Positions 573 through 63,695 of a stretch of 64,000 bases of DNA are shown here, piece after piece. The translations under genes and the position numbers were made by a program. This DNA is from Chloroflexota bacterium (GTDB lineage: Bacteria; Chloroflexota; Dehalococcoidia; Lucifugimonadales; UBA3495), in contig JAPPGG010000023.1 in the NCBI GenBank assembly GCA_028875055.1, positions 1,746 to 65,745 of the forward strand. The letters run 5' to 3'. The notes beneath the pieces were generated by a model. That model had not been told where the DNA came from. It worked only from the letters and a program-made list of their open reading frames with translations, and did not search any database. The first letter of the stretch is position 1, and every line of letters begins with the position of its first letter.

Positions 573-955
573 ATGTCCTGCCTGGGGAGGTGGGGACTTC
601 AGGCCCCACCTCGTTGGCTCTACCCAAGGGATGGCTGCAACGGGCCCTTTCCCTTTTCCCTGAAGCGTCGCGGGAGCGCTGCCCGGGGTTGACGCGGCGT
701 CATTGGGAGGATGGTAGCGGGGCTGCCAATGGGTTGCCAATGGGTTGAAGGCGCCGCGGTAATTCTTGACTGACTTTTGAAATATAGTACCAGAAGGTAA
801 CGCCCTATGCGGAATTGGCCCGCCGATAACGCGGGGCAGCGCCTCCGCAATCGTCCTGGGCCCTGCCTGGACCGGCCACGGAATTGACAAGGCAGGTGGG
901 GTCTGTTGAAATTGGGCCATCACCGGACAGAATGCTGAGCATGGAGGAGAGCGTT

Positions 956-61939: not shown

Positions 61940-62422
61940 ATGGATGTCAGCGAAGTAGCGGAAATGTTGATGGCCCAGGGCAAGCGGGTATCGGTAGCTG
62001 AGGCGGATACAGCAGGCCTAATCGGCTATTTGCTGGGTACCATCCCCGGCAGCTCCCAGTTCTTCCCGGGCGGCGTTATTGCCTACACCGGCGGTCTAAA
62101 GCAGAGCATCCTTGGCGTTTCCGATGAACTCTATGACACCAAGGGCAGCGTCTGCGAGGAGATGGCCATTGCCATGGCGCGCGGCGTGCTGGAGCTTACC
62201 GGCACCGACTATGCCGTCTCCACCACGGGCGTGACCGGCCCGGGCCAGGGACGTTCGTCCTTCCCCATTGGCACCTTTTACATCGGCCTGGCCGACGCCA
62301 ACGGCAACGACGTGGCAATCCACCGCCAGTTCGACAGCGACCGGGACGGCAACAAGCGGGCCGCGGCCCAGGCCGCCCTGGACCTGCTGGGCGAGCGGCT
62401 GAAGGAAGGGCAGGGGGGTTAG
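61940..62422 (+). CDS. CinA C-terminal/PncC family protein with non-canonical active-site motif
   Basis: AEADTAG in place of AESCTGG; PGSS.FF.GG...Y...K; VSTTGVTGPG. Confidence 0.85.
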   Translation: MDVSEVAEMLMAQGKRVSVAEADTAGLIGYLLGTIPGSSQFFPGGVIAYTGGLKQSILGVSDELYDTKGSVCEEMAIAMARGVLELTGTDYAVSTTGVTGPGQGRSSFPIGTFYIGLADANGNDVAIHRQFDSDRDGNKRAAAQAALDLLGERLKEGQGG

Positions 62423-62504
62423 GGGAGGGCTTGAACCTGCGCAAAGTACGGGAGGGTTCCCTGGCTCAAGCTTGGAACGAGTACAGTCCAAAGAAAAAGC
62501 AGTA

Positions 62505-62550
62505 CCCCGGCGTCTTCACCTGCTCAAGGCAGGGATAGGACGGCCCGGGG
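62505..62550 (+). ncRNA. Candidate structured RNA upstream of the Abi gene (abiF-motif-like)
   Basis: Three nested stems: CCCCGG/CCGGGG, CGTCT/GGACG, CCTGCT/GGCAGG; A-rich 5' flank; ends 31 nt before the start codon. Confidence 0.5.
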
Positions 62551-62581
62551 CTTACAAACGGAATATATCATAGGTTGCCAA

Positions 62582-63313
62582 GTGCGTCAAACCGAACTTT
62601 TCAGTGATTTGCAGCGAGCGCTTTCCGGCAACAGGCTTGAACCCTACTTGAGCCAAAGTACCCAGCGTGACACCGATGTGGCCCTTGCCACCTATCTGTG
62701 GAACCTGGCCTTGTGTGAGAGCTTGTATCCCTCCTTACATGGAATCGAAGTGTCCCTACGTAACAGCATTCATGACACGGCTTCAAGAAAATTTGGCAAC
62801 GAGTTCTGGTTTACAAGCCATTTGGTTGGCCGTGAGAAAGAGAATATCGAGAAGATAGGCCAAGGTTTTTCCCGGAGAAATATAGAAGCAACCCCTGGAA
62901 AGTACGTATCCGAATGCAACTTTGGCTTTTGGGTGAGTCTCTTCAAAAGCGAGTATGAGCTTACATTATGGAGAATACTAACTGGCGACGTTTTTCCTTA
63001 CGCGCCTCGACAGGCTAGAACACGAAGCTTACTTCGTGCCCGCCTCGATGGCATTCGCCGACTTCGTAATCGGGTCTTCCATTTCGAACCGATTTGGCAA
63101 TTGCCAGACCTGAGCCAGCAACATATCGAAATCTTGGAAACTATCGGCTGGATTAACCCGACGTTTCGAGAAATGACAGAAACAGTGGACCGATTTCCCC
63201 AGGTATTTGACGACGGCCCAGCGGCCTACCAGGCAAGGCTAAATACGTTGGGTCAGCTTCCTCAATCCGAGAGCGAAACGGCGATGCCGTCAAGAGGAAA
63301 CGAAAATGAATGA
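62582..63313 (+). CDS. Abi family protein (Abi_2; AbiD/AbiF-like HEPN RNase)
   Basis: YLWN..L...LYP.L..IEV.LRN, FGFWVSLF, RRLRNRVFHFEPI (R-x4-H HEPN motif); lower GC than flanks. Confidence 0.88.
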   Translation: MRQTELFSDLQRALSGNRLEPYLSQSTQRDTDVALATYLWNLALCESLYPSLHGIEVSLRNSIHDTASRKFGNEFWFTSHLVGREKENIEKIGQGFSRRNIEATPGKYVSECNFGFWVSLFKSEYELTLWRILTGDVFPYAPRQARTRSLLRARLDGIRRLRNRVFHFEPIWQLPDLSQQHIEILETIGWINPTFREMTETVDRFPQVFDDGPAAYQARLNTLGQLPQSESETAMPSRGNENE

Positions 63314-63695
63314 CATGGCAGACTCACGTAACCGCATAATTCTGCTGGGACAGAACCTGTTCTTCCAGGCCAGGATTGAGACGGTGGCCGAACCCCTGGG
63401 CTACTCGGTGCGGCAGGCCCACACCGAGACCGACTTCTGGGACACGTACACCGAGGGTGACACTGAACTGGTGCTGGTGGACCTGGAGGGAGACGCGGCC
63501 ACCTGGAACGGCGTACTGGCAGCGCTGGGAGAGCGGGCTGGGGCAGATGCCAGCGCTGGCCCCCGCATCGTGGCCTTTGGCCCGCATGAGGATACGGCCT
63601 CCATGGAGCGGGCGGCGGCCCTGGGCGCGCAGCAAACCCTGAACAAGGGTCGCTTCAGCGCGACGCTGGGGGAGATCGTTGGGGGTGGCGGTTAG
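63306..63695 (+). CDS. Stand-alone CheY-like receiver-fold protein
   Basis: LVLVDL, IVAFGPH, A.ALGA pattern; atypical acidic pocket. Confidence 0.7.
   Translation: MNDMADSRNRIILLGQNLFFQARIETVAEPLGYSVRQAHTETDFWDTYTEGDTELVLVDLEGDAATWNGVLAALGERAGADASAGPRIVAFGPHEDTASMERAAALGAQQTLNKGRFSATLGEIVGGGG

Follow-up and report, generated by a model that had tools for sequence, protein, structure and literature searches.

The stretch of DNA analysed here, hereafter the window, comprises 64,000 nucleotides of contig JAPPGG010000023.1 from the Chloroflexota bacterium assembly GCA_028875055.1. Between the host gene cinA and a host gene for a receiver-like protein it carries an inserted cassette with two genes. 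One is an intact open reading frame (ORF), here called abi, which encodes a putative HEPN RNase toxin. The other is a predicted small-RNA gene, located ~30 nt upstream of the ORF on the opposite strand. AbiF systems are type III toxin-antitoxin systems, in which an upstream non-coding RNA (ncRNA) neutralises the toxin by direct binding to the HEPN dimer and blocks its active site (PMC12373285, PMC12737573, PMC13064643). They include PbAbiF-AbiFr (PDB 8VZ6; Zilberzwige-Tal et al. 2025, as cited in PMC12737573 and PMC13064643) and AbiFCd-RCd22 of C. difficile (PMC12373285). We consider it likely that the inserted cassette is a two-gene toxin/RNA-antitoxin defence unit of this AbiF kind in a variant layout. 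By analogy, its RNA probably acts as an antidote to the RNase. What is new is that the small RNA belongs to an uncatalogued family and that the layout is divergent, with the RNA promoter inside the first codons of the toxin gene.

A first-pass annotation of the window had drawn attention to a 46-nt three-stem hairpin directly upstream of the ORF. The hairpin was recovered at 62505-62550, with a folding energy of -29.2 kcal/mol (z = -3.4). Its reported lack of a U-tail, for which it had been set apart from typical terminators, applies to the plus strand only. Read on the minus strand, the hairpin continues into UACUGCUUUUUCUUU, and the A-rich 5' flank described at the time is this U-tail read backwards. 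The minus strand reads TTGACG, 17 nt, TGaTATATT, CCGTTTGTAAG, hairpin and UACUGCUUUUUCUUU. A consensus scan for sigma-70-like sites across both strands of positions 62300-63500 returned this minus-strand site only, with 10 of 12 matches and the upstream TG.

The same order is found throughout the family, in which a conserved block in the upstream regions of the homologues reaches past the hairpin on both sides. From the promoter onwards it comprises the hexamers TTGACA or TTGCAT (-35) and TAtaaT (-10), set 17 nt apart, then ~11 nt with (A)CAGU at the end, the hairpin and a U-run. The family-wide -35 hexamers TTGCAT and TTGACA are the reverse complements of ATGCAA and TGTCAA at the ORF start. 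Promoter scores of at least 9 of 12 were obtained on the RNA strand in 44 of 90 loci, compared with 6.6% of shuffles and with four of 90 loci on the ORF strand. The -10 hexamer ends 11-12 nt ahead of P1, the outermost helix, in 61 of these loci, and at least six T within the 10 nt past the hairpin on the RNA strand are present in 81. Paired columns show G.U and A.C combinations at a ratio of 60:21 in the model-fitted alignment and of 42:13 in a structure-blind MAFFT alignment. Promoter, U-tail and the excess of G.U over A.C argue that the RNA is transcribed, and folds, from the minus strand. As read from the sequence, the hairpin belongs to a separate predicted small-RNA gene, divergent to the ORF, with its own promoter and a U-tract end.

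Upstream regions of ~100 homologues were extracted from related genomes, metagenomes and viral contigs, and the hairpin is almost universal among them. Its family architecture comprises a G+C-rich helix P1 of 6-7 bp, a 5' bulge of 2-3 nt, a helix P2 of 3-4 bp, an internal loop, a helix P3 of 5 bp and a variable loop. In the internal loop the 5' strand UCCUCUCC and the 3' strand GUGAUGA are nearly invariant; the clade of the window has CUAUC and UGAA at these places. P3 and its loop, in contrast, are variable both in length and in sequence. A covariance model, R1, was built from 72 minus-strand sequences and matches the 64-kb window once, at 62486-62564 on the minus strand (65 bits, E 9e-18). 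Covariation across the upstream regions of homologues, which the first-pass annotation had named as a check on the hairpin, was counted on 90 distinct sequences and bears the structure out. Standard pairs occupy 95% of cells and both-sided changes occur in 13 of the 15 pairs. Double-change cells number 154, compared with 33.5 in shuffles, and none of 500 shuffles reaches 154. When the structures are slid by 1-3 columns, pairing falls to 31-58%.

The RNA is tightly associated with the toxin gene. R1 gave 93 matches in 97 sources, nearly all on the strand opposite to the gene, loci L071 and L106 being the exceptions. Among 88 homologous loci for which 150 nt or more of upstream sequence was available, 84 have the RNA in divergent orientation within 350 nt, the 5' edge of the match mostly lying 17-20 nt away from the start codon. 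Together with the covariation, this is the conserved structured RNA adjoining the toxin gene that characterises the AbiF group. In L106 the RNA lies downstream of the gene. In L071 it occupies positions 85-164 of the plus strand, directly upstream of a gene that starts at 169 on the same strand, and has the promoter TTGACA-17-TAAACT. This sole same-strand homologue displays the canonical AbiF arrangement. Since the L071 RNA is co-directional with the ORF, the conserved feature is the sense strand of the RNA and not antisense pairing. Upstream of one further homologue (L079) two full-length R1 matches are present on the minus strand, 187-266 and 295-373, ~108 nt apart.

Over 41 related genomes R1 found 15 matches, 11 of them directly beside abi loci, and all abi loci were covered. 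Plasmid-borne homologues in E. coli (IncC), Aeromonas caviae and Picosynechococcus PCC 7002 (pAQ5) likewise have the RNA beside them, and it therefore spans at least three phyla; a search of the PCC 7002 literature yielded nothing on a small RNA of pAQ5. Remoter plasmid homologues from Ancylobacter and Xanthomonas (28-33% identity) are accompanied by a shorter divergent hairpin with CUCU, a mini-P3 and its own promoter.

Copies of the RNA are found next to decayed toxin genes and without any toxin gene. The abi ORF is decaying in some relatives, by a frameshift in genome G010 (L005/L011/L114) and by an in-frame TAA in G015 (L002), and the small RNA beside these ORFs is intact (65.8 and 71.4 bits, respectively). 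To judge from these two genomes, decay hits the toxin earlier than the RNA. In a species of the same genus (G002) the cinA/receiver site holds an orphan small RNA alone (L130, C1:1650800-1652300; RNA at 651-729, plus strand, 73.6 bits), with an intact promoter and the abi ORF deleted. Further orphans, at sites elsewhere, are a second one in G002 (L128) and one in G016 (L129). In both genomes the orphan RNA genes have retained their promoter after loss of the toxin ORF. In an exact-pattern scan of viral contigs the conserved core with its CUCUC/GUGAU loops turned up at three loci that have no abi ORF in their vicinity. Two of them, L135:864-913 and L137:32-81, contain a complete hairpin (40 bits). 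The third, L136:3435-3473, lies on a 315-kb viral contig and keeps UUC-CUCUC-CCGGC...GCCGG-UGAU with a wholly different P1 (GGGAGGAG/CUCCUCCC). These hairpins on viral contigs are possible decoy antidotes of phages, which we offer as a lead.

Concerning the protein, at least 414 homologues of the ORF were found. In an alignment of 34 of them (42-80% identity) R162, N163, R164 and H167 are invariant, and the motif RNRVFH agrees with the Rx4-6H motif of HEPN proteins in the AbiF/AbiD-F group. For the name Abi_2, given in the first-pass annotation, there is only a match to Pfam Abi_2 (PF07751) that, at 18.5 bits, stays below the gathering cut-off of 25.6. A precomputed PF07751 match is present in some homologues at 45-58% identity. 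The PADLOC profile for PD-T4-5 (PDLC04038) is a better match (E 2.5e-19, 67.7 bits), covers only profile positions 8-206 of 309 and has no curated cut-off in the PADLOC library; the PADLOC AbiD match has an E-value of 0.003. Because the PD-T4-5 match is partial, we regard the protein as a relative of PD-T4-5 and not as its orthologue.

An AlphaFold2 model of the protein is all-helical, with a predicted local distance difference test score (pLDDT) of 91.1. Its top Foldseek match in the PDB is 8vz6_A, that is PbAbiF with its ncRNA (probability 1.00, TMq 0.56, E 1e-2), and the remaining PDB matches have probabilities of at most 0.13. 8VZ6 is also the sole match of a sequence-profile search of the PDB, in which R162 and H167 are aligned to R210 and H215 of PbAbiF. 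These two PbAbiF residues are essential, and their mutation inactivates the protein (PMC12373285). As modelled, the ORF product has an AbiF protein fold, with moderate similarity.

The toxin gene and the small RNA move jointly as one unit. In eight species of the same genus 1-4 nt separate the cinA stop codon from the receiver ATG, and in the window and four relatives a ~0.9-kb cassette occupies this junction, extending from directly past the cinA stop codon to one base beyond the abi stop codon (Table 1). These empty sites identify the ORF region as a genuine insertion. G+C content is 0.48-0.52 inside the ORF and 0.62-0.69 in the flanks. The first-pass description of a low-GC gene with an intact RNRVFH motif, inserted between cinA and a receiver gene, is therefore accurate. 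No target-site duplication and no repeats were seen when the insert borders were inspected by eye. Distribution is patchy, the abi gene being present in 10 of the 41 related genomes. Comparison with the empty sites also places the likely true start of the receiver gene at the ATG at 63315 (MADSRNRII...) and not at the upstream ATG at 63306, which sits within the end of the abi ORF. The ~67 nt at 62423-62489, from the cinA stop codon to the 3' end of the small RNA, are conserved in close relatives that carry the cassette, and neither a promoter nor a repeat was recognised in them.

Table 1. Features of the cassette and its surroundings, in positions of the window.
Feature	Position	Strand	Remarks
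Inserted cassette	62423..63314		~892 bp, between cinA stop codon (62420-62422) and receiver ATG (63315)
cinA, left flank, host gene	61940..62422	+	Pfam CinA, E 2.8e-43
Receiver-like gene, right flank, host gene	63315..63695	+	weak Response_reg match (Pfam)
abi, AbiF-fold / PD-T4-5-like HEPN RNase gene, putative toxin	62582..63313	+	GTG start, 243 amino acids, intact
HEPN catalytic motif RNRVFH (R162...H167)	63065..63082	+	residues 162-167
Predicted small RNA transcript	62490..62555	-	~66 nt; short 5' leader, three-helix hairpin, U-rich tail; ends inferred
-35 hexamer TTGACG	62585..62590	-	reverse complement of ORF codons 2-3 (CGT CAA)
-10 hexamer TATATT with upstream TG (extended -10)	62562..62567	-	sigma-70 consensus scan
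Hairpin	62505..62550	-	P1 6 bp, 2-nt bulge, P2 4 bp, internal loop CUAUC/UGAA, P3 5 bp, 5-nt loop; from folding and covariation
U-rich 3' tail UACUGCUUUUUCUUU	62490..62504	-	T-count after hairpin across loci

The abiF RNA motif (Rfam RF03085), which Weinberg and colleagues reportedly described in 2017, has the consensus CCCGCC-A-AGC-CUCUC[6]-GCU-CAAAUC-GGCGGG. For the RNA family of the window we obtained CCCCGGG-cua-UUC-CUCUC-[P3]-GUGAU-GAA-CCCGGGG. Both are hairpins associated with abi genes and, as judged by eye, have in common that the outer stem is G+C-rich, that the inner stem has 3 bp and that CUCUC is present. The family described here differs in that the bulge is on the opposite side, the helix P3 is added and the length is 46-50 nt instead of 37 nt. 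By eye, the RNA resembles an abiF-like hairpin in which a helix has grown in the loop. The divergence from the Rfam abiF motif suspected earlier was confirmed, as RF03085 had no match in the window even at E <= 10. Neither abiF nor any other Rfam family was matched when the region, the genome and the plasmid loci were scanned.

The cassette shares with AbiF-AbiFr and AbiFCd-RCd22 a HEPN RNase of AbiF-like fold with aligned catalytic R and H, a short, structured, cis-encoded RNA in which a GC-rich outer stem is combined with a short inner stem and CUCUC, and a mobile, patchy distribution. In contrast to AbiF, the protein is shorter (~230 compared with ~300 amino acids) and below the threshold of Pfam Abi_2, and the RNA is not matched by RF03085, possesses the extra helix P3 and has a conserved 3' GUGAU strand. 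The main difference lies in the layout. Canonical AbiF ncRNAs are encoded upstream of the toxin gene on the same strand, as a leader (PMC12373285), whereas the RNA described here has its own promoter and terminator and is divergent, with the -35 hexamer inside the first codons of the toxin gene. It is on the opposite strand in the window and at 84 loci, and on the same strand in L071 only.

PD-T4-5, the best profile match of the window protein, is a plasmid-borne 'Abi-like' abortive-infection system of E. coli ECOR34 (Vassallo et al. 2022, PMC9519451). It was described as a remote relative of AbiF/D with toxin-antitoxin-like character (PMC9519451). PD-T4-5 was reported as a single gene and cloned with a 184-bp flank, which might conceivably hold a small RNA; in the window a putative toxin gene is accompanied by a predicted small-RNA gene. 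ToxIN and AbiQ likewise combine a protein RNase toxin, a cis-encoded neutralising RNA and a role in abortive infection, neutralisation and this role being putative in our case. Their toxin fold is unrelated, however. The toxin processes ToxI, an array of tandem repeats that is co-directional with the toxin gene, whereas the cassette contains just one hairpin gene, in opposite orientation. The loci studied here contain one hairpin each; the two copies in L079 are separate and form no repeat array.

An AbiF-related unit of a HEPN toxin and a structured RNA is supported by the tight co-occurrence of the two genes, the strong covariation and the AbiF fold. The first-pass annotation had proposed a unit of this kind, and in this respect it was correct. 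Its anatomy has to be revised, since the RNA is an opposite-strand gene and not a 5' leader. Several observations speak against our interpretation. Sequence similarity to PbAbiF is marginal (E 0.64 in the profile search), and the Foldseek match has an E-value of only 1e-2 and a root mean square deviation of 10.7. RF03085 is unmatched in the window (E <= 10; likewise for 131 nt), the genome, 20 relatives and eight plasmid loci, and the CUCUC likeness to the abiF RNA was judged by eye. Two homologues with full upstream sequence, L053 and L070, are without the RNA. Moreover, ORF-strand promoters are not enriched (15% compared with 14.5% in shuffles), neither between the hairpin and the start codon nor in the 150 nt beyond the RNA gene, and 59 of 80 loci have no obvious Shine-Dalgarno (SD) sequence.

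These last points bear on the most serious alternative, in which the small RNA would act on the mRNA or the transcription of the toxin in a type I-like manner, be it as cis-antisense to a long 5' untranslated region, as anti-SD via its CU-rich loop or by promoter occlusion or collision. The RNA promoter overlaps the first codons of the ORF. No separate ORF promoter was found, so any mRNA that begins further upstream would be complementary to the whole of the small RNA, and the loop UCCUCUCC is complementary to the SD-like GGAGAGGA. However, most ORFs have no GGAGG-type SD with which this loop could pair, and the candidate toxin is a soluble, all-helical HEPN enzyme of 243 amino acids and no small hydrophobic peptide as in type I systems. 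Conservation of loops and covarying helices across phyla would be needless for pure antisense, the L071 RNA is co-directional with its ORF, and orphan copies with intact loops lie far from any abi gene, those left after loss of the toxin ORF having retained their promoter. On these last three grounds a trans-acting, protein-binding RNA is favoured over pure antisense, and we rate type I-like action as unlikely.

We hold the other explanations to be less probable still. The RNA might serve the HEPN enzyme as cofactor, guide or sensor, similar to a proto-CRISPR RNA, or be a substrate whose cleavage signals infection, and would then be no inhibitor at all. AbiF has been proposed as the ancestor of Cas13, and the variation of P3 and its loop around fixed internal loops would suit such a function. 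AbiF also processes its own ncRNA (PMC12737573). Yet neither a spacer-like hypervariable segment nor an array was seen, P3 covaries as a plain helix and the toxin-less orphan RNAs suit an antidote better than a guide, so that this explanation appears very unlikely. Next in rank, and strongly disfavoured, is an ORF-strand element in the 5' leader of the toxin gene, acting in cis or processed from the mRNA. Such an element would agree with the upstream, same-strand position of canonical AbiF ncRNAs (PMC12373285) and with the co-directional layout of L071, and the plus strand folds about equally well. But the plus strand would give many helices A.C mismatches and has no promoter upstream, and the plus-strand reading was dropped because promoter, U-tail and wobble asymmetry all indicate the minus strand. 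Least credible is that the hairpin is a mere terminator, insulating or bidirectional, on the border of a mobile cassette, without a specific partner role. The GC-rich stem and U-tract are terminator-like and are placed between a host gene and the inserted ORF. A terminator would hardly account for a promoter of its own ~5 nt upstream of the stem in most loci, for internal loops that are nearly invariant across Chloroflexota, Cyanobacteriota and Pseudomonadota, or for the specific association by which 11 of 15 R1 matches in the 41 genomes lie beside an abi gene.

Returning to the toxin/RNA-antitoxin unit that we prefer, its mode of action can be outlined by analogy with PbAbiF-AbiFr and AbiFCd-RCd22. 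An abundant, stable small RNA would bind the HEPN dimer, and its single-stranded CUCUC-type loop would occlude the active site and silence the RNase. Once phage infection or cassette loss had lowered or displaced the RNA, the freed RNase would cut cellular or phage RNA and abort the infection. More speculatively, toxin expression may be held down by a second layer, namely polymerase traffic or occlusion at the promoter of the small RNA. Such a layer is conceivable because the RNA promoter overlaps the ORF start and no ORF promoter is recognisable.

A wider proposal, which we put forward tentatively and would call possible rather than probable, concerns short PD-T4-5-like HEPN proteins of AbiF fold in general. 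These 'single-gene' Abi systems, which occur in Chloroflexota, Cyanobacteriota and Pseudomonadota, E. coli IncC plasmids included, may be obligate two-component systems with an uncatalogued small-RNA partner, whose promoter lies in the first codons of the toxin so that the expression of antidote and toxin is physically coupled, and of which phages carry orphan copies as decoys that disarm the defence. AbiF-ncRNA pairs were characterised only in 2025, and the remote but widespread branch described here retains a putative RNA partner. Its members fall below the Pfam Abi_2 threshold, and their usual annotation is 'hypothetical' or 'Abi family protein'. Searches of the same-strand upstream region and Rfam would both overlook a different RNA family in inverted layout. 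This suggests that 'single-gene' defence systems may conceal RNA components, and candidate phage-borne RNA decoys are indicated as well. With less than 900 bp the cassette is a compact, testable system, and its carriers include plasmids of E. coli, Aeromonas and a model cyanobacterium.

Larger enterobacterial Abi proteins of 334-351 amino acids, whose best PD-T4-5 profile score is 84 bits, apparently have a different divergent RNA of ~90 nt, as judged by eye. On plasmids of E. coli and Klebsiella (L111:1400-1560 and L134:1040-1180, minus strand) this element, which R1 does not match, has TTGAC(A/G) as its promoter and AAAAGCCAUCCUUCGGGGUGGCUUUUCU as a strong terminator. An ALIL pseudoknot (RF01497, 121.5 bits) was located at L111:3694-3810 on the minus strand, in an IS3-family transposase beside the Abi gene of E. 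coli pLAO49, and is an ordinary frameshift signal.

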